IMG/VR virus record: IMGVR_UViG_3300032007_000002
Strand: one strand, 5' to 3'
Source: a virus
Taxonomy: Duplodnaviria; Heunggongvirae; Uroviricota; Caudoviricetes
DNA: 64,000 nucleotides
The notes beneath the pieces were generated by a model that saw only the letters and a list, made by a program, of their open reading frames with translations, did not search any database and was not told where the DNA came from. The position numbers and the translations under genes were made by a program. Positions 23,054 to 57,220 of this stretch are shown piece by piece; within the stretch, counting starts at the first letter, position 1, and every line of letters begins with the position of its first letter.

Positions 23054-23247
23054 TCCCGAATCTCCTCCGGGATGTCATGATACAGCAGGGACAACTGCGG
23101 GTCCCACGCGGCGTTCATCAGCGCATCCATCCCTTCCGGCCACTTGGCCCTGATGTTGAGCAGGCGGTTCCGTGCCTTCCTGGCCTTTTCAATCCTGCGC
23201 AGCTTCTTCACGCGCTTGCGCTCGCGTTTCCTTGCAATGTTTGGCAT
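23050..23247 (-). CDS. small basic protein
   Basis: ORF track; Lys/Arg-rich. Confidence 0.35.
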   Translation of the reverse strand: MPNIARKRERKRVKKLRRIEKARKARNRLLNIRAKWPEGMDALMNAAWDPQLSLLYHDIPEEIRE

Positions 23248-24424
23248 GATATTGCTCCATGGCTGTCAATATTTCCTTGTCGAACTCGTCGCGCACTTCC
23301 TTGAATAGAGGCTCAGACGATTGTCTAGTTTCGGGCGTGTCCGGCACTTCGGACGGCGTTCCGTGGCTAATCAGCATGTTTTGCCCCCTGTACGGTTCCG
23401 GGCGTTCGGCCCACGCAAGAACAATGCTGTCGTCATAGTAGTATTCGCCGGTCCCGTCGTCCCATTGCGGGTTCTCCCTGCTCCCGTAGAATATCGCGGA
23501 GCAGGTCTCCCTGCTGGTCGCGGAATGTTCAATGGTGACAAGGACACGGGCGCCCATGTCCGGGAGACGTTCCGAAGTCGGGATCCATTCTATTCCGCGG
23601 GAACGCTGGTGCTCTTTGGACGGTACCGAGACGAAAATCTCGCCCTCGTAGCGTTGCCTGAACGCAAAATACCCGATACGCTGGCGTTCGGTGGACGCCC
23701 AAACATCGTCGAGGCGCGGGTCGTCCTTCCATGTATGCTCGGACACGTGGAACGGGATCGTGCAGTTCTCCCAGAACGTGAGGTTCGCCGGACGCTGCCT
23801 GCCGAAGCGGTGCGCACCGCCGAGGACAAGTTTCGCCCTTGCGCGTGCTTCGTAGCCGGGGAACACTACGTTGGTGAACCCGCGCATCGCCCTGTCCGTC
23901 AGGCAACCGAAGTCGTCGAGGAACAGGAAGTCCCAACCAATGCCGCGGGTATTCTTTTCCAGTTCCGCGCGGGCGCAGAATACGCTCCCGTTGCAGAACC
24001 GTATCTTCTGCGCCGTCCACTCGGTCACGCCGGGCTGCATCCAGTACGGGATGCGCAGGTACATCTCCCGGACGATGGACTTGAAGTAGCCTTCCGCGCC
24101 CTTGCGCTTGGGTGCCATGTAGAGCGCGGCGTATTTCGGCTGGAACATGCAGGCCCACAGCATGTAGCCGAGGACTAGGGTGGTATAGCCGGCCTGCCGG
24201 TACCAGTCCCCCTTAATCAGCTTGTTGTCGCGGATCGCGTCGAGTTCCTGCACCTGCCTGGGCCGGAGGGGGAACTTTACCGCGCCGAGCACGGAATGGA
24301 TGTAGAAGTAGTTTTCGAGGAAGTATCTCGGGTCGTGCTTGCACTTCTCGATTTCGAGCAGCTGGGCCGGTTCGAGCCGGATCTCTTCTCCCTCGCCACG
24401 GAGGTCAGGATTGCGCCTATACAT
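23189..24424 (-). CDS. terminase-large-subunit-like ATPase domain protein with non-canonical Walker A and C-terminal DUF551-like domain
   Basis: FPLRPRQVQELD...YRQAGYTT (RQxGKT pattern with K replaced by Y)...DFLFLDDFG (Walker B); C-terminus LPDMGARVLV...YYDDSIVLAWAERPEPY resembles DUF551. Confidence 0.45.
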   Translation of the reverse strand: MYRRNPDLRGEGEEIRLEPAQLLEIEKCKHDPRYFLENYFYIHSVLGAVKFPLRPRQVQELDAIRDNKLIKGDWYRQAGYTTLVLGYMLWACMFQPKYAALYMAPKRKGAEGYFKSIVREMYLRIPYWMQPGVTEWTAQKIRFCNGSVFCARAELEKNTRGIGWDFLFLDDFGCLTDRAMRGFTNVVFPGYEARARAKLVLGGAHRFGRQRPANLTFWENCTIPFHVSEHTWKDDPRLDDVWASTERQRIGYFAFRQRYEGEIFVSVPSKEHQRSRGIEWIPTSERLPDMGARVLVTIEHSATSRETCSAIFYGSRENPQWDDGTGEYYYDDSIVLAWAERPEPYRGQNMLISHGTPSEVPDTPETRQSSEPLFKEVRDEFDKEILTAMEQYHAKHCKETRAQAREEAAQD

Positions 24425-34122: not shown

Positions 34123-34128
34123 AGCGAG

Positions 34129-34200
34129 AGCCGGGTGCAGGGCTCGAACCTGCGACCTGAGCTTTACGAAAGCCCTGCTCTACCGCTGAGCTAACCCGGC
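34129..34200 (-). tRNA. tRNA-Thr (anticodon CGT)
   Basis: Manual fold: acceptor GCCGGGT/ACCCGGC, D GCTC/GAGC, anticodon loop TTCGTAA, T-loop TTCGAGC. Confidence 0.7.
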
Positions 34201-34203
34201 ATA

Positions 34204-34276
34204 AGCCGTCGGCCGGCATCGAACCAGCGACCGGCGCATTACAGGTGCGCTGCTCTACCAACTGAGCTACGACGGC
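34204..34276 (-). tRNA. tRNA-Thr (anticodon TGT), unusual C at position 33
   Basis: Manual fold: acceptor GCCGTCG/CGACGGC, anticodon stem GCGCA/TGCGC, loop CCTGTAA. Confidence 0.6.
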
Positions 34277-34279
34277 ATA

Positions 34280-34352
34280 TCGGGGTAGCAGGGCTCGAAC
34301 CTGCGACATCCTGCTCCCAAAGCAGGCGCTCTACCATCTGAGCTACACCCCG
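34280..34352 (-). tRNA. tRNA-Pro (anticodon TGG)
   Basis: Manual fold: anticodon stem CCTGC/GCAGG, loop TTTGGGA, T-loop TTCGAGC. Confidence 0.7.
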
Positions 34353-34362
34353 GAAAGTCTAG

Positions 34363-34435
34363 TCGGCGTAGCTGGACTCGAACCAGCGACCCCATGCTCC
34401 CGAAGCATGTGCGCTACCAACTGCGCTATACGCCG
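34363..34435 (-). tRNA. tRNA-Pro (anticodon CGG)
   Basis: Manual fold: acceptor CGGCGTA/TACGCCG, anticodon stem CATGC/GCATG, loop TTCGGGA. Confidence 0.7.
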
Positions 34436-34444
34436 AAAAAATCG

Positions 34445-34518
34445 TGATGCCGGAATGAGTCGAACATTCGACCGGCCGTTTAGAAGACGGCTGCTCTGTC
34501 CAACTGAGCTACGGCACC
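34445..34518 (-). tRNA. tRNA-Arg (anticodon TCT)
   Basis: Manual fold: anticodon stem GCCGT/ACGGC, loop CTTCTAA, T-loop TTCGACT. Confidence 0.65.
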
Positions 34519-34522
34519 GTAG

Positions 34523-34596
34523 CGGGACCAGCGGGGCTCGAACCCGCGATTTCCGGCGTGACAAGCCGGCGTTCTAGCCAACTGAACTATGGCCCC
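34523..34596 (-). tRNA. tRNA-Asp (anticodon GTC)
   Basis: Manual fold: anticodon stem CCGGC/GCCGG, loop TTGTCAC, discriminator G. Confidence 0.7.
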
Positions 34597-34601
34597 AGTT
34601 A

Positions 34602-34674
34602 TACGGGCAGTGGGTCTCGAACCCACGACTCCCATATTAAAAGTATGGTACTCTACCATCTGAGTTATACCCGT
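34602..34674 (-). tRNA. tRNA-Lys (anticodon TTT)
   Basis: Manual fold: anticodon stem CCATA/TATGG, loop CTTTTAA, T-loop TTCGAGA. Confidence 0.7.
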
Positions 34675-34728
34675 GAATCAAATTCGCGAGGTATTACGTT
34701 TTCGTATGTTCATATTCGTACTCCTTAG

Positions 34729-34802
34729 TCGATACGGCTGGACTCGAACCAACAACTACCGCCTTATCAGAGCGGCGTGCTAACCAATTACACCACGCAT
34801 CG
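34729..34802 (-). tRNA. tRNA-Ile (anticodon GAT)
   Basis: Manual fold: anticodon stem CCGCT/GGCGG, loop CTGATAA, T-loop TTCGAGT. Confidence 0.65.
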
Positions 34803-34816
34803 AAGTTGATTGTTAG

Positions 34817-34889
34817 TCCCGGTGGCAGGGCTCGAACCTGCGACCAACCCCGTATGAAGGGGCCGCTCTACCAACTGAGCTACGCCGGA
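34817..34889 (-). tRNA. tRNA with CAT anticodon (Met, or Ile2/lysidine type)
   Basis: Manual fold: loop TTCATAC, T-loop TTCGAGC; acceptor stem has one C-A mismatch. Confidence 0.55.
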
Positions 34890-34896
34890 ATGTTAG

Positions 34897-34967
34897 TGCT
34901 CCTATCTGGACTCGAACCAGAACCCACGGATTAAGAGTCCGCTCGTCTACCATTAGCATATAGAAGC
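34897..34967 (-). tRNA. tRNA-Lys-like (anticodon CTT), weak D-stem
   Basis: Good acceptor, anticodon (GCGGA/TCCGT, loop CTCTTAA) and T arms; D-stem TGCT/GACG pairs poorly. Confidence 0.45.
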
Positions 34968-34974
34968 ATTTTAG

Positions 34975-35045
34975 AGCGCCTATCCGGGGTCGAACCGGAA
35001 CCAACTGCTTGGAGGGCAGTGATGCAGCCAATACACCATAGGCGC
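34975..35045 (-). tRNA. tRNA-Gly (anticodon TCC)
   Basis: Manual fold: anticodon stem ACTGC/GCAGT, loop CCTCCAA, T arm TCCGG-TTCGACC-CCGGA. Confidence 0.6.
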
Positions 35046-35054
35046 GTAATTTCG

Positions 35055-35127
35055 AGCATCTGGCCGGCTTCGATCCGGTGACCTCATCCATGGCAAGGAT
35101 GCGCTCTACCAACTGAGCTACAGATGC
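35055..35127 (-). tRNA. tRNA-Gly (anticodon GCC), atypical T-loop ATCGAAG
   Basis: Perfect acceptor GCATCTG/CAGATGC; anticodon stem CATCC/GGATG, loop TTGCCAT. Confidence 0.6.
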
Positions 35128-35131
35128 GTAA

Positions 35132-35203
35132 CAGCCCCCTGACGCTTCGAACGCCATCCTGCAGATTTGGAGTCTGCGATGCTACCAGTCACACCCGAGG
35201 GCT
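35132..35203 (-). tRNA. tRNA-Trp-like (anticodon CCA), G at position 8 and weak D-stem
   Basis: Anticodon stem GCAGA/TCTGC, loop CTCCAAA, T arm TGGCG-TTCGAAG-CGTCA, acceptor AGCCCTC/GGGGGCT. Confidence 0.45.
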
Positions 35204-35317
35204 AAGGGGTGGGACATGTGCTGACTGTCCCGGCGCCGGGAGGAGCGGGCGACATTACTCGAGTTGTCCGTCCGACGGCTCCCGGCGCTTACCAGCGAAT
35301 GCAGAAGGGGTCCCGGT

Positions 35318-37222: not shown

Positions 37223-37292
37223 ATTTTCGGGGAACTATATCTCCTCTTGACATACTCCCACGAATAAAGTCATGGGATTCTGGGAGTTGCTA

Positions 37293-38393
37293 CTACGAGC
37301 AACATATCTCAAAGGTAGATGCCCCTACCTTACATAAATTTATTGCGGCATTCCTATCCCTATCATGTTCTGCACCACACTTAGGACATATCCAATGTCT
37401 AATGGATACATCCTTCAATTCGTGGTTCTGATAACCACACTCGGAGCATAACTGGCTAGATGGGTACCACTTGTCTGCGTACATGACTGTCTTACCAGTC
37501 TTATGTGCTACATATTCAATGATATTCAAGAAAGTATTGAATCCGAAGTCGTACATGGATTTCTTATACTTCTTGGATAGATTAGCTAGGTCTAGCGTCT
37601 CAAACACCATCACATCGTAGTCACGGCACATCTGCCGTGCCAACTTCCAGTGCATATCGGAACGCTGGTTGGCTACCTTCTCGTGTAGCTTCTGCAATGT
37701 ACGCAGCGAACCTCGCTTTCCTTTAGACCTACGGTATTTCTCCGATAGGTTCCTTAATGAATTGAGGTTCTTCCGCAATAGCTTAGGCATACTGCAACCA
37801 TCACCGTTAGAGGAAACCAAGAAGTCGTGCAGACTGAAGTCGAAACCAACGATTTCACCCGATTTAGTCCACTCTTCGTATGCTACTTCTTGCTCAACAA
37901 CGATGTATATGTAGAAGCCGTTGCTCTTGCGCTTGACGGTGAGCGTTTTAATCTTGCCGTCGAAATCCCTGCTATTCCAGTAGGGAAAGTCTTTCTTGCC
38001 TATCCTAACTCTATTGCTGTCATGAAACTTATATCCACATTGCTTTGTCGTGAACGACCTATACTTTGCAGATTTCTGGAAATGTGGCGGATTGGTCTTC
38101 TTGCCAACCTTCAAGTTCGAGAAGAACAACCGATATGCTCGGTCTATCCTGTCCGTGATATCCTGAATAGCTTGAGACGGAACCTCATTCCAGTCTGGGT
38201 ATTGCTTCTTCAACTTGGTTAAGTGCTTCTGCAACTGATACTTATTCAACATCTTATGGTAGATGCCGTAGTACCTACGATGCAGAGCAATGCAGTGGTT
38301 GTATATCTGTCCAGCAACTACCAGAATACCGTCAAGATACCTCAAAGCATCCCTATTGTACAGCTTGTACTTGTATGTCTTCAATTCAACCAT
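37293..38393 (-). CDS. tnpB: IS605 OrfB / TnpB RNA-guided-endonuclease-family protein
   Basis: C-terminal QLCSECGYQ...HWICPKCGAEHDRDRNAAINL (RuvC-III plus zinc finger); 366 aa. Confidence 0.85.
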   Translation of the reverse strand: MVELKTYKYKLYNRDALRYLDGILVVAGQIYNHCIALHRRYYGIYHKMLNKYQLQKHLTKLKKQYPDWNEVPSQAIQDITDRIDRAYRLFFSNLKVGKKTNPPHFQKSAKYRSFTTKQCGYKFHDSNRVRIGKKDFPYWNSRDFDGKIKTLTVKRKSNGFYIYIVVEQEVAYEEWTKSGEIVGFDFSLHDFLVSSNGDGCSMPKLLRKNLNSLRNLSEKYRRSKGKRGSLRTLQKLHEKVANQRSDMHWKLARQMCRDYDVMVFETLDLANLSKKYKKSMYDFGFNTFLNIIEYVAHKTGKTVMYADKWYPSSQLCSECGYQNHELKDVSIRHWICPKCGAEHDRDRNAAINLCKVGASTFEICCS

Positions 38394-38424
38394 AGATAAG
38401 CAAATGTCCCCAGAACACTTAAAA

Positions 38425-38482
38425 TTGGCAGTCAGCGTTCCGAGGACATTTTAAAATCTAACCTTGATAGGAGGACTGCCAA
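38425..38482. repeat. 9-bp perfect inverted repeat (ttggcagtc ... gactgccaa) with 40-nt spacer, upstream of tnpB
   Basis: Seen directly. Confidence 0.5.
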
Positions 38483-38525
38483 GAACTCTTATCATATAGA
38501 AGTTTATAACAATATACAAAAACTT

Positions 38526-38903
38526 TTACGAGTTTGCAACCGTTTTCATCATCCCACGGCTAAAGCCGTGGGCTTTCCGTTCAGCGTAATAATATTCCCC
38601 AATCTTCTTGCCTTTCTTCTCCTGCTCGATGGCCGCGTGGATAAACGTGAGCGCATCCGCATACAGGAGGAAGAACACCGGGTCTTGGAACACGGAATAC
38701 AGGATGAGCGAACCCATTGCCGTATCTATCGAGTAGGACTTGTACCGGTGCCAGAAGAACCGGCCCTTCCACTGGGGATAGGCGTTCATCAGCAGCTTGT
38801 TGCAGACGATGCGGTGCTTCTTGTCGATACGGATGACGCACCGTCCGCGGAACTTGCGTTCAACCTTCGCTTCTTCAGGAGACCTTACCATTCTTGTCCC
38901 CAT
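38526..38903 (-). pseudogene. possible IS200-like TnpA (Y1 HUH transposase) C-terminal fragment; HuH half absent
   Basis: PQWKGRFFWHRYKSYSIDTAMG resembles the TnpA FW.RGY..DTVG tyrosine motif and IHAAIEQEKK the C-terminal IEEQ; no HxH motif upstream; GC differs from tnpB. Confidence 0.35.
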
Positions 38904-39788: not shown

Positions 39789-40035
39789 CGGGGAGCTCCA
39801 GGCCGCGTTCCTTCAAGTACCAGAACCTTGCGGAATAGTATTCCGGCGTATATCCGCCCTCTGCGTTGGCATCGTCACAGGTCCCGTGGGACCCGAACCA
39901 ATCGACCTCGAACTCGTAGAGGGCCTCCTTCAATCGGTCGTCCGTGTCGGTTGTGGAACCGTCATTCCGGTCAAGCCAGTCGCGGCACTTTTCGGCTTGC
40001 CAGTCGACCCGGCCGTTCCTCACTTCATCAGACAT
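39775..40035 (-). CDS. hypothetical protein
   Basis: Start MSDEVRNG; from track ORF 39775..40128. Confidence 0.4.
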   Translation of the reverse strand: MSDEVRNGRVDWQAEKCRDWLDRNDGSTTDTDDRLKEALYEFEVDWFGSHGTCDDANAEGGYTPEYYSARFWYLKERGLELPDEKD

Positions 40036-40617
40036 CGTGTTCGTCCTCCTTCGCGGCTTCCTGCATCTGTTCGTGGTATGCGCGATAGGAAGTGAGGAAA
40101 TTTTCCGCATAGATTGACGCGCGGACAAGGTCCGGGTGAAGACCGGGGATAAGGGAAATTTCGCGCAGGACGGTGGTCGCGTAGTCGATTTCCCCGATCT
40201 TGTTGTCGGTCCCCCAGCTCATCGCCGTGGCCACGGTGTTCTCGATGCGGGTGCGGACGATTTCCGGGTCCGGGCAGTTGCCGTTGAGGAAGGCGCACAT
40301 CGCACGGGCTTCTTCCTCGTCCTGGTAGAACCGGCGGTCGAAACAGTGGTTGTCCATCCAGTTCTTCGCGCACTTCAAAGTCGGCTCGTCGCGCTTGAGC
40401 GTGTAGGGCTTGAACTTGAACTTTCCGCCGGCACCGACATAGATGTAGTACACGGTGGCTTCCTTGATCTTGTTCTTCACCGCGTTCTCCAAGTCGAACG
40501 GGGTAATGGGGCCGCGTTCTCGGCATGCCTGGATGAAGGCTTCCGAGTTGATTTTCGGCAGCCTTGCCAGGCGTTCGCGAAGTTCACTGATCGATGCGTA
40601 TTCGCTCATCATCTTCT
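40028..40617 (-). CDS. hypothetical protein
   Basis: Start MMSEYAS after AGGAGAAG; from track ORF 40028..40771. Confidence 0.5.
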
Positions 40618-42630
40618 CCTTATGAAAACTCTGTAATAGATGCACTTCGGCATCCCGTTCTCGTCGAGCAGGTAGCTGTTCTGTACCCGCCAGTTCTTGT
40701 AGTAGGCCTTGTACGCCTTCTGCCGTTCCTCCGACGGGGGCGTAAAGAACTCGCACTCGTTGAACGCCCATGCGGTGTCCCCGCTCCGCCCAAGGACCTC
40801 GAACTGCTTCGGGTCGAAATGGTCGAAGAACGTAATCGGGACGCCCATCACCCCGTCGTAGTCCTTCGGGATGTCCGAGATCCTGTCGACGTTAATCGCG
40901 TCGAAATTCTCGAACTTGGGGTATTTCGCCGGATCGTAGGCAGCCTTCAAAAAGATGCCGCGCTCGTCTTCCTTCCGGGGAACTGACATGTTCGTGTACC
41001 ACCTGCAAAGGCCGGTGACCTTCTCGGTCTCGCCTTCCGGCGTCTCGAACTCGTCCGGGGAGGTGATGCCGAGCTGGATCCTGCCGGAACGCAGCTTGCG
41101 GAACACCTCGTTGTAGTTGACGCAGTTCTTGTTGCCGATGACATAGAAGTCCCTGTCGGCGCCGTCCACCCAGTCCACGAAGTCCCGGAAGCAGTTCCCG
41201 CACCAGGTGGCCAGGCCGTTCCTGCGGACGAGCATGGTATGGTTGCGGTCGAGTTCCAGGCAGTGCACGGTCCCGTCATACTGGACCTTCTCCGGCACGG
41301 GATAGTCCGTATTGCGCTTCTTGGTCTCGATTGCCCAGTTCGCCATCCAGTAGGGGTTTCCCTTGGACTTGCGCTGGATGAACTGCACGAGCACGCCGCG
41401 CACTTTCAGGATGAGCTCCTGCAGGCCCTCGCACAGCTTCGGTGCGGTACTGCCGATTGCCTGGCTCACCTTCCCGCCGATGTGGGAGAGATGGGAGTTG
41501 CCCTTCATGTAGCCGTCGAGGAAGCGGGCCATGTAGGCCGGTTCCATGTAGAGGACTTCCGTCGGGAACTTCTTCTCGATGCCCTTGCCGAACTTCGCGA
41601 GGTAGGTCCACAGCTGCTTGCTGTACACGGTGTAGTTGTGGTTCCTGGTCTTACTGGACCGTTCCACCTTGCACGGGAAGCCGATCTTGGCGTAAAGGTC
41701 GATGACGTACTTCTCGTTGTCCTCGTTCTGCTTGATGCTGATCGTGTAGCGGGGATTGCCGTTCACGTTGTTGCCGAAACGGACGCAGCCGTCGGCAAGC
41801 CAGAACCCGAGGAACTCCAGCCAGTCACCCATCGGAATTTTCTTTTCCGGGACGGTGATGTCCTTGTGGGTGTAGCGTTCGTTCTGCATGACGCTCGGGA
41901 GCGTGAAGAACTCCTCGTGGATGCCGCTCCAGTCGTATTCCAGACCGCGGATAGGCACGGAATGGTAGTGGGGGACCACCTCGTCGGCGCGGCAGAACAG
42001 GTCCTTGCGCTCGTTGCAGATCATGCGGTGGTTTCCGGTCACCATGAGGTCCATGCCGGACTTCTTGAAGTGGAACAGCTCGCCCTTGTACGGGGTGTCG
42101 TAGAAACGGACGATGCGGGCGTATTCGACCTTGCGGGTCGCCGGGTCCATGCTGAGGACGAGGTCGCCCGGCTTGACGTCGGTAAACAGCTTCCAGCCTC
42201 CGTCGGTGAGCACCTCGGTATCTGAAGAGAAACAGCTGAAAGGGGGGTTGGTCACGACCAGGTCGGAATGCTGCATGAACTTCGTGATTTCCGGGGAACG
42301 GAAGTCCCCGTCTCCATCCAGCACCCACCGGGCAACCTTAATATTGCCGTCCCGTCCGAGAGAAACCGTCTCCGCGTGGCCGCGATGGCCAGGGACATAG
42401 CTGGTACAGGTGAGTCTGCGGAGGCCCAGTCCCTGGAAGTTGTCGATGAAGAAGTCGCGGAACCCCGGGTGTTCAAGGTCGTTGCACGGACACAGGACGG
42501 TGCGGTTGGCGAAGAAGCCGGGGTCGCGTTCGAACAGCGCCTTCATCTCGTGGGAGACGTCGCTGTAACTGGTGTAGAACTCGTCGTTCTTGGCAGTCTT
42601 CGCCTCACGTAAATTGCGGTTCTTGGACAT
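40609..42630 (-). CDS. DNA methyltransferase (NPPF motif; N6-adenine/N4-cytosine type) interrupted by a LAGLIDADG-type intein
   Basis: Start MSKNRN; extein motifs VVTNPPF and GVPITFFDHF; the ~347-aa insertion has intein blocks A, B, C/E and a terminal Asn followed by Cys. Confidence 0.7.
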   Translation of the reverse strand: MSKNRNLREAKTAKNDEFYTSYSDVSHEMKALFERDPGFFANRTVLCPCNDLEHPGFRDFFIDNFQGLGLRRLTCTSYVPGHRGHAETVSLGRDGNIKVARWVLDGDGDFRSPEITKFMQHSDLVVTNPPFSCFSSDTEVLTDGGWKLFTDVKPGDLVLSMDPATRKVEYARIVRFYDTPYKGELFHFKKSGMDLMVTGNHRMICNERKDLFCRADEVVPHYHSVPIRGLEYDWSGIHEEFFTLPSVMQNERYTHKDITVPEKKIPMGDWLEFLGFWLADGCVRFGNNVNGNPRYTISIKQNEDNEKYVIDLYAKIGFPCKVERSSKTRNHNYTVYSKQLWTYLAKFGKGIEKKFPTEVLYMEPAYMARFLDGYMKGNSHLSHIGGKVSQAIGSTAPKLCEGLQELILKVRGVLVQFIQRKSKGNPYWMANWAIETKKRNTDYPVPEKVQYDGTVHCLELDRNHTMLVRRNGLATWCGNCFRDFVDWVDGADRDFYVIGNKNCVNYNEVFRKLRSGRIQLGITSPDEFETPEGETEKVTGLCRWYTNMSVPRKEDERGIFLKAAYDPAKYPKFENFDAINVDRISDIPKDYDGVMGVPITFFDHFDPKQFEVLGRSGDTAWAFNECEFFTPPSEERQKAYKAYYKNWRVQNSYLLDENGMPKCIYYRVFIRRR
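41194..42234 (-). other. intein (about 347 aa) with LAGLIDADG homing-endonuclease domain, inserted right after the NPPF motif
   Basis: CFSSDTEVLTDGG (block A), DLMVTGNHRMIC (block B, T..H), LEFLGFWLADGCV and ARFLDGYMKGNS (LAGLIDADG motifs), ending ...LATWCGN then C; boundaries approximate. Confidence 0.6.
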
Positions 42631-43154
42631 TACATTCTGCCTTTGCTGCCGGCTTCGATAATTTCTTCGATGAAACGGAGGCGGAGGCCCCTGGCCTGCT
42701 CGATTGCCTTGGCGACACGTTCGTCCTTGGAAAGGCAACTCGGGTCGACATAGGAGTTACGGACGTTCTCCAGGTAATACGCGTCGCCGAGAGTGTCACC
42801 GAGGTTCTTGCCGACGTAACTGGCGTTGATTGCCGCCTTGATGGCGCACGCGATGTTCTTGGCAAGGAGCTTTGACGAATGGGTGCCGGTGCCCTTGTTG
42901 GTATTGATCGCGGCATAGCGCTTCGCATCGCGCTGGATACGGAGTGCGGCCATGGCGAGAGCCTTGATGTCCATTTCGGGAGTAATATCCGTCGATGCGT
43001 TGGAAACGTCGATTCCCGGAAATTCGCTCGGGAGGAACGGCCAGTCGGCAGCGAACGGCGGGGGTTGGAGTTCGCCTTCATACGGCTTCTTTTCGGTTAC
43101 GACGAGCTTTGACAGCGGGACACATACGGTTTCATTTTCGTTTTCGTTTGACAT
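42630..43154 (-). CDS. hypothetical protein
   Basis: ORF track; motif at 43169-43184 then AGAGGT SD. Confidence 0.5.
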   Translation of the reverse strand: MSNENENETVCVPLSKLVVTEKKPYEGELQPPPFAADWPFLPSEFPGIDVSNASTDITPEMDIKALAMAALRIQRDAKRYAAINTNKGTGTHSSKLLAKNIACAIKAAINASYVGKNLGDTLGDAYYLENVRNSYVDPSCLSKDERVAKAIEQARGLRLRFIEEIIEAGSKGRM

Positions 43155-47212: not shown

Positions 47213-48495
47213 TTGTAGAGGTGCGGGATCATGACATCGTTGCGTATTGTGACGCCAGGTCTAATGATGTCCCCGTAGTCAATGAACGCCGGATCAATAT
47301 CGTCCCCGCCCAGGGTTTCCATGCCGAATTGCAACGAGACTGCACGTACATTATAGCCCTCAGCGCGGCTTCTCCCGCAGGAATGGCATTCATCGCAGTC
47401 GCAAATCACCACATGGAACAACCACTGGCGACGATCGGCAAAGACGCTCTTGATCGCCATGTCCCCGCTGGCCCCGTAGATTATCGCACGTTCCTCATCG
47501 GTGAACTTGGCATACACCGTGCAGGCAATCGAGGGCGCTTCGCAGCTGAGCGGGAGACCGCCCAATCCGTGCTTCTCCACGAACTCGGTAACCATGGCCT
47601 TGTCCCACTTGATGAGCGGGAACGTATAGGACGGCTTGCGGGCAACCTGGGTCTCGAACTCCGGCGCATGGTTTCCGTACAGGTGGCTGAGCGCAAACGC
47701 GCCGTCATAGAGTTTCCGCATGTCCTCGATAAACGTCTCGGACTGGTCCCCCTTGACAATCCCCATCTGCACCTCGTCCAGCAGGGACGTGATTTGCGGG
47801 TTGATGTAGGCAAGGCTGAACGTATTGACCGGCTGCTGGATGAAACCCTCGAACTTGCCGCCATAGTTACACGCCCCGGCAGGGAAATTGATGCCGCGAT
47901 ACATAGGCATCAGGATGCCCGGACCCTTGTAGGTCTTCGATATTGCGGCAAGCATCGTATATGCGAGTATCGGGGCAACTTTAAACTCGGCGTTGAGCCA
48001 GTTGTAAATCGGGAATACGACCTTACCCTCGTCCAGGTTCTTGAGAACGAGCGCCGTGCTGTCCATGCCTCCGGTAAACAGGACGCCTACCGCATTGGTC
48101 GGCTGTCCGTGTTCCCATTCGGGATTGAGCGTCCTGATTGCCGATGTCAGGCGGTCCGGGTAGCCATCCATCCTGGAAAACGCATTCTTGACCATGTCCT
48201 CGACCACATCCACTTGCGGGTAGCTTGTGCTCCAAAAATTGTAGGTATCTTTCTGCATGTGGCTAATCATGGTGAACCCGAGCGCATCCATGACTTCCTG
48301 CTTGCGCTCGCGGTAGAGAATGGGTACCCGGCGGTCAAACACCTTGGTGTCGATGTCTAGTCCCTGCATGCGGATGCCGAACCGCTCCCTGAACGGGAAC
48401 CTGGCAACCCATTCATTCGCAATCTTTTCTGCACGAACGGGAAACCCGACGGAATTATTCGGTTCCATCAGTTCCATGTCAGCTTTACTGCTCAT
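47209..48495 (-). CDS. PP-loop ATP pyrophosphatase superfamily protein, QueC-like, with C-terminal zinc-binding cysteine cluster
   Basis: VGVLFTGGMDSTALVL (SGG.DST PP-loop) and CDCDECHSC; start MSSKAD after GGAGGAAGCCG; co-transcribed downstream of the beta-class methyltransferase. Confidence 0.5.
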   Translation of the reverse strand: MSSKADMELMEPNNSVGFPVRAEKIANEWVARFPFRERFGIRMQGLDIDTKVFDRRVPILYRERKQEVMDALGFTMISHMQKDTYNFWSTSYPQVDVVEDMVKNAFSRMDGYPDRLTSAIRTLNPEWEHGQPTNAVGVLFTGGMDSTALVLKNLDEGKVVFPIYNWLNAEFKVAPILAYTMLAAISKTYKGPGILMPMYRGINFPAGACNYGGKFEGFIQQPVNTFSLAYINPQITSLLDEVQMGIVKGDQSETFIEDMRKLYDGAFALSHLYGNHAPEFETQVARKPSYTFPLIKWDKAMVTEFVEKHGLGGLPLSCEAPSIACTVYAKFTDEERAIIYGASGDMAIKSVFADRRQWLFHVVICDCDECHSCGRSRAEGYNVRAVSLQFGMETLGGDDIDPAFIDYGDIIRPGVTIRNDVMIPHLYK

Positions 48496-49291
48496 CGGCT
48501 TCCTCCCGGAAGATAGTCTTGAGACTGCCATGGAAGTCGCCCTTGTTCATCTCGGCGGCCAGCTTGACGATGCGCGTCCCGGCAATCTCGAAGTATTCCT
48601 TGTCGATTTCCATGCCGATGAACCTGCGGCCTTCCTTCAACGCAGCAAGGCCGGTGCTGCCGCATCCCATGCAGTTATCGAGGACGACATCGCCTGGTTC
48701 CGTGTAGGAACGGATAAGCCAGGAAAGAAGTTCCACGGGCTTTTCCGTGCGGTGTTCGGACTTGGACGGGTGCGGTTTCGGAATGTCGATGATTGACACC
48801 GGGTATTTCTGGGTGCTGCCCTTGCGGACGTCGTCCGTGGCCTTGAACTTGCCGTAGTTGTTGTTCACCATGTCCTTGGACATGTAGGACTTGCCGCGGC
48901 CGTGGAGGGGCTTCCCTTCGTGGAACTGCGGGTTGAACTTCGGCATGGACTTGTAGAACACGGCAAGCTGCTCGTGGGAACGGAGAGGCATGCGCTTGGC
49001 GTTCAGGAACCCGGTGACGAGCTTCTTGTTCCAGACCAGGTCGTATCGGAACAGCTTGCGCCTAGACTGAACCAGGTCAACGTAGAACAGGCCCTGGGCG
49101 AACAGGACGATGGCCCCGTCATCCTTGATGACACGCTCATACTGTTCCCATAGGGGTTCGAACGGGATGCGCTTGTCGTGCGGGTTGTGCGTGACGCCGT
49201 AAGGGAGGTCGCACAGGATCATATCGACCGACTTGGGGGCGAGCTTCTTCATCTCCTCCAGACAGTCTCCGAAAAACAGCGAATAGGACAT
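48485..49291 (-). CDS. beta-class N6-adenine/N4-cytosine DNA methyltransferase (CcrM/HinfI-like motif order IV then I)
   Basis: ILCDLPYG (DPPY-type motif IV) near the N-terminus and VVLDNCMGCGSTGLAA (motif I) near the C-terminus. Confidence 0.8.
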   Translation of the reverse strand: MSYSLFFGDCLEEMKKLAPKSVDMILCDLPYGVTHNPHDKRIPFEPLWEQYERVIKDDGAIVLFAQGLFYVDLVQSRRKLFRYDLVWNKKLVTGFLNAKRMPLRSHEQLAVFYKSMPKFNPQFHEGKPLHGRGKSYMSKDMVNNNYGKFKATDDVRKGSTQKYPVSIIDIPKPHPSKSEHRTEKPVELLSWLIRSYTEPGDVVLDNCMGCGSTGLAALKEGRRFIGMEIDKEYFEIAGTRIVKLAAEMNKGDFHGSLKTIFREEADEQ

Positions 49292-54661: not shown

Positions 54662-57220
54662 TTAGATGTTGTGCCGGTCGCCCAGTTCTTTCACCTTGCC
54701 ATCATTCCAGGACAGTTTAATAGTCTTCCTGGGTGACCCGGTTAAATATCCCGTGATACGGCGGACTCGGATGAAATACTTCTCATCCTTGCACCCGCAC
54801 TTGGGGCACACATTGTCGATAATGCCGTGATAGCCGCACTTGATGCAGTCGTCGCTATCCATCGTGACGGTGAAATAGCCGAGATTGCCATTGTACATCG
54901 CGTCGATCGCGGCAGCGACGGCTTCCACGTTCTTGGTCAAGTCGCCGTTCAGCTTGTAGTAGAAGATATGCCCGGCGTTGGTGAGCGCGTGGAACGGGGC
55001 CTCCACCTTGATCTTGTCGTCGAGTGACACGTCGAGGGAGAAGTCCATCATGTGGGAATTGGTATAGTAACCCTTTCCGAAGATGCGCTGGAGGTTGACA
55101 TCAGCCAGCTTCTTGTTGTCGCCGAACTTCTTGGCGTCGATTGTAGCGAAGCGGCCGGCGACAGCTTCCGCCGGCGTGGCGAAGCAGGACCAGTTCATGT
55201 GCGTCTTCTTCTGGGTAGCGTCGCAGAAGTCGCGGATGTGCTTGACGATGGACACGGCGAGCGCATCGACTTCGTGGTCAACGCCATAGGTCTTGCCGGT
55301 AAGGAGCGTAATGGTTTCCGCGATGCCGATATAGCCGATGGAGAGCGTGGACTGCTTCATCACTTCGGCGATATCATCGGAAAGTTCGTGTTCCTTGTCG
55401 TCGGACGTGAGATAAAGACCTTCCTGCATAGTGAACGGGAACGTCTTGTAAGTCTTCATGCACACGAGGTTGAAACGTTCAACCAGGCTTTCCTTGGCGT
55501 CGTCGAGCATGCCGTCGAGCTTCTCGAAGAACACCTTGATGCGGTCTTCCTCGGAGGACTTGGCGATACGGGCCTCGATGGCGAGACGCGGGAGGTTGAT
55601 CGTGTGGAAGGCAAAGTTGCCTCTGCCGGTAGTCTGTTCCGGGCCGTTGACATTGCCGATGACACGGGTACGGCAACCCATCGTCGCAACGGTGGTGTTT
55701 TCGACCAGCTTGCGAAGGTTGAGGACGCTGCCATCGAAGTCAACGACTTCCCAGATGTCGTCATGCGCGATGTGATATTCGTAGATCGGGAACTCGGTCT
55801 TTTCGACGCGTTCGACATTTTCGAACTCGTCCTTGCCGCGGACCTTGACAGCCAGAGGACCGTCAGTGACGACAATCGTCTTGGTCAGGTACTTGACGTA
55901 GGGCTTGTTGAAGGTGGAGTCCACGGACACGAAGTTCGGGTAGAAACGGCGGGCGAGGCAACGGATTGCCTGCTGCTTGAGGTCAAAGTTCGGGTCGGTT
56001 TCGAGGAACGTGTAGCCCTTCATGAGCTTGAAAATCAAAATCGGGAAGATGGCGGTAAGGCCGTCACCCATGCCTTCATACTGTGCACGCATGAGGTTCT
56101 TGCTGACCATGCGGCCGCAAGCGGACACGTCGAGACCGAAGTTGAGGGAGCTGAACGGGACCTGGTTGCCGGAACGGCTCTGCAAGGAGTTCAGGTTGTG
56201 GACAAGGGCCTCCATTGCCTGGTGGGTATCGCAGTCGGTGAACGCGATTGCCTTGTCGATACACTTCTTCGGGAACAGTTCATAAAGTGCGCTGGTCGGG
56301 GTGTTCATGGACACGCCGTCCTTGGCCAGGCCCTTCGTGATGCGCTTGATGGTTGCTTCGATATCGGCATCGCCTTCCTGCTGCAGGTACTGGGCAAATG
56401 CCGGATCTTCGGAATAGTCGGCCTTTGCGTTGAGCTGGATTGCGAGGTTCCTGCGGAAGGAACGGTCCACGAACGGGGCGAGCTCGAAATCGAAGTTGTC
56501 GCAGGCGATGCCGCCATACTGCTGGTTGCTCTGGAGCTGGAGGATGACCGCGGTAAGCGCAGCTGCGCTCTGGATGGTCTGTGCGGGGCGCTGGAAGCCG
56601 GTACCGGAGTCGAAACCGGTGCGGAGCTTCTTGCCGACAGGCGCAAAGAGGCAGTTGAACGTAAGGTCATACATGTTGAGGTCGTGGATGTGGAGGTAGC
56701 CGTTCGTATGCTCCTCCGCATACTTCTTGCTGACGTTGTCGAGCAAGTTATACATCTTGTTGGTTTCCGAGGCAATCTTGCCGTACATGCCTGCCGGGGT
56801 GTCGCCGGACTCGTTGGCGTTGTCGCGCAGGATGTTGGAACTCGGGAGATCCGCGTGCTTGATTTCGCGGACGGTCTTGATGATGGGGGAGCGGAGTGCT
56901 CTTTCGCGGTCGCGCCTGTTGCGCACGATGATGTATGCGTCATAGGCATCCATCGAGACTTCGCGTAAAACTTTCTTTACAGCGTCCGCGACGGAGTCGT
57001 TGCTCACACACTTCTGCTTCATGTCATACAGGATGTCAACTACGTCACCGGTGAGTTCTTCGACTCGTTCCTGGGTGAAATCTACTTTCGCATCGACAAG
57101 CGACTTACTGATACAGCGTTCAATCTTCAATGGGTCGAATTTCTGCCGTCCGCCGTCCTGCTTCTTAACCTGCCGCAGAAACGTGCGTTCCGACATCTTT
57201 TCATCCTTCGTATCGTCCAT
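54662..57220 (-). CDS. nrdD: anaerobic ribonucleoside-triphosphate reductase (class III) with N-terminal ATP-cone
   Basis: ATP-cone (LRQVKKQDGGRQKFDPLKI), ATMGCRTRV active-site region, C-terminal CIKCGYHG..CPKCGC zinc ribbon and glycyl-radical motif RVRRITGYLTG; AGAGGAAATTCC SD. Confidence 0.9.
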   Translation of the reverse strand: MDDTKDEKMSERTFLRQVKKQDGGRQKFDPLKIERCISKSLVDAKVDFTQERVEELTGDVVDILYDMKQKCVSNDSVADAVKKVLREVSMDAYDAYIIVRNRRDRERALRSPIIKTVREIKHADLPSSNILRDNANESGDTPAGMYGKIASETNKMYNLLDNVSKKYAEEHTNGYLHIHDLNMYDLTFNCLFAPVGKKLRTGFDSGTGFQRPAQTIQSAAALTAVILQLQSNQQYGGIACDNFDFELAPFVDRSFRRNLAIQLNAKADYSEDPAFAQYLQQEGDADIEATIKRITKGLAKDGVSMNTPTSALYELFPKKCIDKAIAFTDCDTHQAMEALVHNLNSLQSRSGNQVPFSSLNFGLDVSACGRMVSKNLMRAQYEGMGDGLTAIFPILIFKLMKGYTFLETDPNFDLKQQAIRCLARRFYPNFVSVDSTFNKPYVKYLTKTIVVTDGPLAVKVRGKDEFENVERVEKTEFPIYEYHIAHDDIWEVVDFDGSVLNLRKLVENTTVATMGCRTRVIGNVNGPEQTTGRGNFAFHTINLPRLAIEARIAKSSEEDRIKVFFEKLDGMLDDAKESLVERFNLVCMKTYKTFPFTMQEGLYLTSDDKEHELSDDIAEVMKQSTLSIGYIGIAETITLLTGKTYGVDHEVDALAVSIVKHIRDFCDATQKKTHMNWSCFATPAEAVAGRFATIDAKKFGDNKKLADVNLQRIFGKGYYTNSHMMDFSLDVSLDDKIKVEAPFHALTNAGHIFYYKLNGDLTKNVEAVAAAIDAMYNGNLGYFTVTMDSDDCIKCGYHGIIDNVCPKCGCKDEKYFIRVRRITGYLTGSPRKTIKLSWNDGKVKELGDRHNI

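Follow-up and report, generated by a model that had tools for sequence, protein, structure and literature searches.

The interrupted methylase gene

We analysed a stretch of 64,000 nucleotides from a virus of the Caudoviricetes (IMG/VR record IMGVR_UViG_3300032007_000002), hereafter the window, in which the gene for an EcoRI-family adenine methylase is interrupted in frame by an intein. The precursor open reading frame (ORF) occupies 40609..42630 on the minus strand, beginning with ATG at 42630 and ending with a stop codon at 40611-40609, and encodes 673 amino acids (aa). We hold with high confidence that this protein is an EcoRI-family methylase carrying a canonical class-1-type intein with a nested LAGLIDADG endonuclease domain, placed between methylase motif IV and the next helix. 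The ORF shares nucleotides with both neighbouring genes, its start codon with the stop codon upstream (TAATG) and its stop codon with the start codon downstream (ATGA), so that the precursor gene lies in a tight operon. The G+C content of the two exteins (0.59 and 0.58) does not differ from that of the insertion (0.60).

The N-extein (aa 1-132; 42235..42630, minus strand, as are all the precursor features below) ends with DLVVTNPPFS and includes motif IV, NPPF, at 42238-42249, directly after the strand at aa 124-127 of the predicted model. It is followed by the intein (aa 133-479, CFSSDTEV..LATWCGN; 41194..42234), 347 aa encoded by 1041 bp, which is the segment missing from the intein-less alleles on contigs L004 and L091. 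The C-extein (aa 480-673 plus stop; 40609..41193) opens with CFRDFVDW, in which Cys480 is the +1 nucleophile, and with the model helix at aa 481-490. An earlier reading of the DNA made without database searches (the sequence-only reading) had recognised this arrangement, and the strings that it quoted for the N-extein, the insertion and the terminal LATWCGN with its following Cys are all found in the sequence, the strand being corrected to minus. It had set the insertion immediately after NPPF of the methyltransferase; the junction lies one residue past NPPF (NPPFS↓C, the arrow marking the insertion point). It also had the methylase resume at GVPITFFDHF, whereas the extein resumes earlier, directly at CFRDFVDW (aa 480).

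Within the intein, the N-terminal part of the Hint domain spans intein residues 1-113, with an approximate end (41896..42234). It opens with block A, CFSSDTEVLTDGGW, whose first residue is Cys133, and contains block B, DLMVTGNHRM (42022-42051), with Thr198 and His201. The LAGLIDADG homing-endonuclease domain follows at intein residues ~114-308 (approximate limits; 41311..41895), with motif 1, WLEFLGFWLADGCVR (41779-41823), supplying catalytic Asp280, and motif 2, ARFLDGYMKGNS (aa 368-379; 41494-41529), in which Asn378 replaces the catalytic Asp. The C-terminal part of Hint (41194..41310) holds block F, VHCLELDRNHTMLV (41227-41268), with Cys457 at position F:4 and His464, and block G, LATWCGN, with Cys477 at G:5, Gly478 as the penultimate residue and Asn479 as the terminal one. 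We note that an antisense ATG ORF of 328 aa on the plus strand (41239-42225) spans almost all of the intein coding region; its translation looks like what a G+C-rich gene usually gives in a stop-free antisense frame.

Intein-less alleles and colinearity of the exteins

When the intein is removed in silico, the ligated 326-aa protein gives one continuous match to PF13651 (adenine-specific methyltransferase EcoRI), from profile position 1 to 344 of 345 (260 bits, E = 4.8e-77), while the match of the unspliced protein to this model is broken into three pieces (236.6 bits). Residues N128, P129, P130, F131 and S132 are kept, as are 19/19 invariant columns of a 58-sequence alignment. Shorter intein-less homologues read NPPFS-LFREF with a clean gap opposite the insertion. 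The closest relative of the window extein, the intein-less P0267, was recovered in a search with the spliced extein and has 326 aa, the predicted spliced length, at 89% identity; its gene (L004:7063-8043) aligns without gaps to the joined N-extein and C-extein DNA, 981 vs 981 nt, at 90.4% identity. The junction of this empty allele in L004 reads ..CCCCCTTTCAGC↓TGYTTCCGGGA.., and the empty site of L004 and L091 around the insertion point is GTGACCAACCCCCCTTTCAGC↓TGTTTCCGGGAATTCGTGGAC. A P0267-type empty allele is also present on a 253-kb IMG/VR viral contig (L091), and blastn of its empty locus against the window omits exactly 42234..41194. The intein's presence or absence is exact to the codon. 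The sequence-only reading had proposed that the spliced extein should be colinear with intein-less homologues and that intein-less alleles might be found in relatives; the first is borne out by the single PF13651 match and the gapless alignment, the second by P0267 in L004 and on the 253-kb contig.

The residue that follows NPPFS in 110 intein-less homologues is Leu in 107, Met in two and Cys in one, and the sole Cys is that of P0267. The simplest reading is that P0267 derives from an intein-bearing allele by precise intein loss, and its otherwise unique Cys is a possible footprint of that event; alternatively, the Cys may be older than the intein invasion. TGYTTC (Cys-Phe) opens both the intein and the C-extein, and the Cys codon of P0267 is TGT, as is the first codon of the intein, with TGC as the +1 codon of the window. 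This codon is compatible with deletion between short repeats, a comparison that turns on a single base. As a separate observation, GAATTC, the canonical EcoRI site, lies in the homing-site region of L004 and L091 (CGGGAATTCGTG), roughly 10 bp away from the insertion point; the window copy has GACTTC there.

Conserved blocks, relatives and predicted fold of the intein

Conservation was counted over about 98 cluster representatives of 600-750 aa from a whole-protein database search. All of them read NPPFS↓C(Y/F/H)SxDTEV and carry the insertion at the identical site. The block A nucleophile Cys133 (Cys1 of the intein) is present in 98/98 alleles, as are Thr198 (Thr66) of block B, Cys457 (Cys325) of block F, and both Gly478 (Gly346) and Asn479 (Asn347) of block G, which follows the pattern W(C/S)GN. 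The block B residue His201 (His69) is found in 97/98 and block F, with the pattern V(Y/H)CL(T/E)L..NH.MLV, retains His464 in 89/98. The +1 residue Cys480 occurs in 97/98 alleles and is Ser in the remaining one; at G:5, 72 alleles have Cys and 26 have Ser, and B:12 is Met in every one of the 98. Formal alignment of these alleles thus upholds the conservation of blocks A, B and G on which the sequence-only reading relied, and adds block F.

The isolated intein can be aligned from end to end with inteins, annotated or known, of GenBank phages, among them those in the large terminase subunit (TerL) of Gordonia phage GMA6, in Lak-A1, in a T5-like DNA polymerase I, in the gp3 nucleotidyltransferase of a mycobacteriophage and in ThyX of corynephage P1201. 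A library of 50% representatives contains 7928 relatives of the intein at E<=1e-3 and 249 at E<=1e-30, and most of the top ones are embedded in long, unrelated host proteins. In a sequence search of the Protein Data Bank (PDB) the intein matches the AceL NrdHF intein (E = 4.7e-4). A hidden Markov model (HMM) of the family gives the window intein 468.6 bits, its only match in a six-frame scan; no second intein of this family was found elsewhere in the window by that scan.

An AlphaFold2 model of the whole precursor, built from a 58-sequence alignment, has a mean pLDDT of 85. Foldseek matches this model to solved endonuclease-containing inteins with E values from 9e-19 to 1e-11, TliVMA being the best (9e-19), followed by PhoVMA, PI-SceI, 2cw7 (Thermococcus kodakarensis intein homing endonuclease II) and PI-PfuI. 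In the model, the methylase chain gives way to the intein once the strand at aa 124-127 and the NPPFS loop are complete, and is taken up again with the helix 481-490. The alignment, the empty allele and the colinearity of the exteins together sustain the central proposal of the sequence-only reading, an intein with a LAGLIDADG endonuclease domain inserted in a methylase. The PF13651 match, the phage inteins, the many relatives and the fold lie well outside what chance would produce.

Proposed splicing route and alternatives to it

We propose that translation would yield the 673-aa precursor with the catalytic loop split from the rest of the fold, and that Cys133 would then undergo an N-S acyl shift aided by Thr198 and His201 of block B. 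The N-extein would be passed to Cys480, Asn479 would cyclise with His464 of block F helping in place of a penultimate His, and an S-N shift would produce a 326-aa methylase (..NPPFS-CFRDF..) and a free 347-aa intein. The ligated methylase would carry the junction peptide FMQHSDLVVTNPPFSCFR (..VVTNPPFSCFR).

Several points weigh against this picture. Splicing itself is a prediction for this protein, as are the activity and specificity of the methylase and the activity of the endonuclease. The Pfam and the NCBIfam/TIGR Hint and intein models each match below their curated cut-offs; membership therefore rests on the relatives, the conserved blocks and the predicted fold. The penultimate His (G:6) is absent and replaced by Gly478, a change that is compensated in related inteins. 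The sequence-only reading had taken this Gly as a sign of possibly atypical splicing chemistry, a view that does not hold up. Gly is found at this position in all alleles of the site and in 134/146 of the best 150 representatives in other host proteins, whose +1 residue is Ser in 82, Cys in 35 and Thr in 24, and a Gly-Asn ending is the norm in this very large phage-associated intein family. The intein of Bethlehem gp51 splices completely with its native Gly, and the substitution G316H slows its splicing (Kelley 2016, PMC5050341); phage class 1 inteins often have no penultimate His, and the block F His can substitute for it (PMC5050341). We therefore reject the penultimate Gly as a special feature, since it is both the family norm and experimentally tolerated. 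The Cys at F:4, present in 156 of about 195 aligned domains of the wider relatives, is likewise no oddity, as only one residue is commoner at that position across inteins in general (PMC4031507).

The conserved Cys457 nevertheless raises the question of whether it attacks the N-terminal junction instead of, or alongside, Cys133, in the manner of class 3 inteins or of a dual-nucleophile mechanism. An obligate Cys at F:4 defines class 3, which is thought to be phage-derived (PMC2807308, PMC4031507), and the F:4 Cys is invariant at this site and frequent in the wider relatives. However, only one of the three residues of the WCT triplet of class 3 occurs here, namely the F:4 Cys itself; Cys1 is invariant, B:12 is Met and not Trp, and G:5 is Cys or Ser and not Thr. 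With class 3 rejected on these grounds, the intein is read as class-1-type, and the related Bethlehem gp51 intein is also placed in class 1 (PMC5050341). Given in addition how common Cys is at F:4 in general, we regard an attack by Cys457 as highly improbable. Scarcely less improbable is conditional splicing, in which disulfides among Cys133, Cys457, Cys477 and Cys480 would form a redox switch holding back the activation of the methylase. Inteins with redox-sensitive splicing are on record, four Cys residues lie at the splicing centre, three of which are kept in 97-98 of the 98 alleles (the fourth, at G:5, being Cys in 72 and Ser in 26), and an anaerobic ribonucleotide reductase among the phage genes suggests an anaerobic host. 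But 26 of the 98 alleles have Ser at G:5, and Ser or Thr usually takes the +1 position in the relatives in other proteins, so that a fixed disulfide pair is not a feature of the family, and the switch is conjectural.

The least probable alternative, to which we give very little credence, is that the insertion does not splice at all, being either a permanent methylase-nuclease fusion domain or part of a dead relic gene. The subthreshold Hint matches, the missing penultimate His and the loss of one catalytic residue of the endonuclease could be taken in this sense. Yet Cys1, TxxH, the block F His, the terminal Asn and the +1 Cys are conserved across the 98 alleles, exteins and intein alike are under purifying selection (see below), and the segment's presence or absence is precise at the codon level. 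Moreover, the insertion cuts motif IV off from the next Rossmann-like helix, such that the unspliced form should be inactive, and the invariant extein residues are all kept. We reject both a non-splicing fusion and a pseudogene on the residue conservation and on the ratios of nonsynonymous to synonymous substitution rates (dN/dS).

Endonuclease domain, Asn378 and mobility

PF14528 matches the isolated intein with 23.1 bits, against a cut-off of 22.5, and the inner endonuclease domain is matched by I-DmoI in Foldseek (E ~2e-6). In the AlphaFold2 model the LAGLIDADG helices 267-280 and 364-378 finish where the metal-binding residues are expected, in keeping with the alpha-beta-beta-alpha-beta-beta-alpha core of two-motif, monomeric enzymes. 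Both LAGLIDADG motifs noted in the sequence-only reading are indeed present and motif 1 has its Asp280, but that reading overlooked that the catalytic Asp of motif 2 is Asn378. Position 378 is Asp in 94/98 alleles and in 186 of about 200 wider relatives. Asn378 is common to the window, P0001, P0003 and four IMG/VR relatives at 97-98% identity (L086-L089), whereas motif 2 of P0002, at 84% identity to P0003, has Asp. In LAGLIDADG enzymes each motif contributes an acidic residue to the binding of the catalytic metal, and without one of these carboxylates at least one strand should no longer be cut. By analogy, double-strand cutting is most likely impaired in this copy, which may be a nickase or cleavage-deficient.

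The domain is under purifying selection and is not decaying. In comparisons with five relatives at 95-98% nucleotide identity, dN/dS is 0-0.10 in the endonuclease region (binomial P down to 6e-9), 0.03-0.08 in the Hint region and 0.06-0.16 in the exteins. The synonymous rate (dS) against L088 is 0.08-0.145 in the intein and 0.232 in the exteins, small numbers that fit continued exchange of the intein and give a hint of it only. Both results sit awkwardly with an impairment of cutting by Asn378: the selection on the domain is strong, and the lower dS of the intein could mean that the copy is still exchanged.

Evidence of mobility is found in the family at large. Among 86 complete alleles (3655 pairs), the identity of the inteins exceeds that of the exteins by at least 15 points in 353 pairs, and at the extremes inteins that are 98-99% identical reside in methylases that are 53-59% identical, as with P0067 and P0071; one of the 353 pairs has 98.9% for the intein vs 52.8% for the extein. 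This excess points to recent homing into diverged alleles. The family endonuclease would recognise, in intein-less alleles, the conserved coding sequence of motif IV (..ACCAACCCCCCTTTCAGC↓TGYTTCCGGGA..), and so drive homing. In the lineage of the window itself, intein and extein identities track each other.

These data bear on whether Asn378 is simply tolerated, with the endonuclease fully active and the allele still homing by double-strand breaks among related phages. The low dN/dS of the domain, the smaller synonymous divergence of the intein than of the exteins from L088, the coexistence of an empty target allele in related viral contigs and the clear mobility of the family as a whole all speak for this. 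On the other side stand the retention of the metal-binding Asp in nearly all alleles and wider relatives (the counts given above), the general experience that characterised LAGLIDADG enzymes lose the cutting of at least one strand with the motif-2 carboxylate, and the parallel identities in the window lineage (intein vs extein 69 vs 65% and 98.6 vs 98.7%), as in vertical descent. We consider full activity unlikely, albeit the most plausible of the alternatives discussed here, and favour an enzyme that in the window lineage would most likely be a nickase or cleavage-deficient, its domain still being kept by selection.

A further combination, which we think quite improbable, would have the extra conserved Cys residues (F:4 and G:5) be functional, as part of a class 1/class 3 hybrid with two alternative nucleophiles or of a redox-gated switch, and the endonuclease domain be retained for a role other than double-strand cutting. 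Were this so, a redox gate would delay activation of an anti-restriction methylase in a large phage of an anaerobe, and the selected endonuclease domain would serve nicking-driven homing or DNA binding.

Comparison with known inteins

The Bethlehem gp51 intein, which interrupts a recombination directionality factor (RDF) of the metallophosphoesterase type, is similar in many respects. The family HMM matches it with 99 bits over both splicing regions, and it shares Cys1, TITANH (TxxH), VWCLRVP (with Cys at F:4), an HLTGN↓S end with a +1 nucleophile, and a nested LAGLIDADG domain. It too is a phage intein in a catalytic motif, of class 1 and with a penultimate Gly (PMC5050341). It differs in its metallophosphoesterase host, in having +1 Ser where the present intein has Cys and G:5 Thr where the present one has Cys, and it is distant enough that a single-sequence search missed it. 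The inteins of Gordonia phage GMA6 TerL and of the Lak-A1 megaphage and T5-like DNA polymerase I align over residues 1-347 at 22-25% identity. That of GMA6 shares with the present intein the type of start (CF..DTE.LT), block B (VTKNH), block F (VYCVE) and end (SGN↓S). These inteins occupy other host genes and sites, and in GMA6 the motif 2 Asp is intact (AGDGS).

TliVMA (7qsu), PhoVMA (7qst), PI-SceI (1vde) and PI-PfuI (1dq3) share the organisation of a Hint domain with an inserted two-motif LAGLIDADG domain, which for the present intein is a predicted fold, with TM-scores, normalised to target length, of 0.46-0.66. They differ in their archaeal or yeast hosts and show only 8-17% sequence identity; these four end in the usual His-Asn. 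Class 3 inteins, such as that of Bethlehem DnaB (Tori 2010, PMC2807308), are likewise phage-associated with Cys at F:4, but have no N-terminal nucleophile, with Trp at B:12 and Thr at G:5, where the present intein has Cys1, Met and Cys.

Inteins habitually insert in catalytic motifs. The view, expressed in the sequence-only reading, that an intein splitting a methyltransferase catalytic loop is uncommon was overstated, since such insertion is usual and phage methylase inteins are documented (PMC5050341, PMC9957025). Those known include DNMT-1/2 (Kelley 2016, PMC5050341) and Dorothy_75 (Gosselin 2023, PMC9957025) in PF01555 methylases and others in phage C-5 methylases (Gosselin 2025, bioRxiv 10.1101/2025.01.02.630785), and intein transfer between diverged methylase alleles has been described (Gosselin 2023, PMC9957025). 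Like the present family, these actinophage inteins bear LAGLIDADG domains, occupy conserved sites of orphan phage methylases, and show a patchy distribution with signs of transfer between diverged alleles; they are set apart by their host families, PF01555 or C-5 as opposed to PF13651. Among 50,697 GenBank phage records, not one has this arrangement over 80% or more of its length, and a text search of the literature for inteins in EcoRI-type methyltransferases (PF13651) returned nothing relevant.

PF13651 with NPPFS↓C is a new intein host family and insertion site in the searched literature, with a standard mechanism and architecture. EcoRI-like methylases, and this precise point within them, thereby join the list of intein hosts, and the understanding of intein mechanism is unchanged. 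The roughly 100 filled clusters and a natural empty allele make a clean natural system for the homing cycle in uncultivated large phages of gut or rumen type, one that displays recent transfer (99% identical inteins in 53% identical genes) and includes a lineage whose mutated endonuclease is still under selection. For annotation, "EcoRI methylases" of 620-750 aa are to be expected as intein-bearing precursors.

The host methylase and its phage

There is no restriction endonuclease gene beside the methylase: the flanking ORFs at 42630-43154 and 40028-40612 have no Pfam or PHROG match, and neither do the called genes that flank the methylase in L001. The adjoining nuclease gene that a Type II restriction-modification system would call for is thus missing, and this EcoRI-family N6-adenine methylase is therefore most likely an orphan with an anti-restriction role. 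A PDB sequence search with the spliced methylase gave matches at chance level only, with no solved structure of the family. A second DNA methylase gene lies at 48485-49291 (minus strand), within a 96.7% identical DNA block, and is the counterpart of a gene for a 268-aa PF01555 (N6_N4_Mtase) protein called in L001. In L004 and L091 the intein-less EcoRI-type methylase has a 73%-identical copy of this PF01555 gene as its close downstream neighbour; linkage of the two methylase genes follows, in an arrangement that differs among phages. Strong avoidance of several 6-bp palindromes is seen over the whole window, with TCCGGA (25.6 expected), AAGCTT (15.2), ATGCAT (13.2), CTATAG (9.9) and CATATG (8.1) each found 0 times; GAATTC is mildly depleted (4 found vs 13.4 expected). 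This pattern suggests restriction-site avoidance alongside the orphan methylases.

The window contains a TerL-like ORF, a gene for the anaerobic ribonucleotide reductase NrdD with an ATP cone, radical-SAM genes, an array of 13 tRNA genes and many ORFs that match nothing. Its close relatives comprise IMG/VR viral contigs reaching 213 kb in length and a contig of 436 kb in the European Nucleotide Archive (ENA), and the source would appear to be a large uncultivated phage, to which the gene content and contig sizes point. A megablast search with 12 kb around the gene against GenBank phages found no match at the DNA level. Intein-bearing alleles also occur in contigs of metagenome-assembled genomes (MAGs) labelled Bacteroidales, Butyrivibrio and Flavobacteriaceae; two of these come from ruminants.

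The TerL-like ORF (411 aa; 23189-24424, minus strand) matches terminase large subunit profiles only in the N-terminal ATPase part, its residues 2-173 corresponding to positions 91-261 of the 347 of phrog_5989. Profiles detected no nuclease half of the terminase in this ORF; the terminase may therefore be split or highly diverged. The NrdD gene (852 aa with ATP cone; 54662-57220, minus strand) has a two-stretch Pfam match that leaves a central segment uncovered; an intein of the family studied here was ruled out as the identity of this segment by the negative six-frame HMM scan. The 13 tRNA genes at 34128-35204 (minus strand) comprise two each for Thr, Pro, Lys and Gly and one each for Arg, Asp, Ile, Met and Trp. 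Tight tRNA arrays of this kind are typical of very large phages.

Downstream of the methylase, the segment 39523-39776 is absent from L001 and 39927-40010 from L087, insertions or deletions that involve small hypothetical ORFs. A lone gene of the TnpB/IS605 OrfB type (ORF 37293-38393, minus strand; PF07282, PF01385; phrog_506, E = 2.9e-82) lies within a 1.3-kb segment (37247-38584) that is missing from the 92-97% identical relatives L001, L087 and L088, and which therefore represents a recent insertion polymorphism in this phage lineage.

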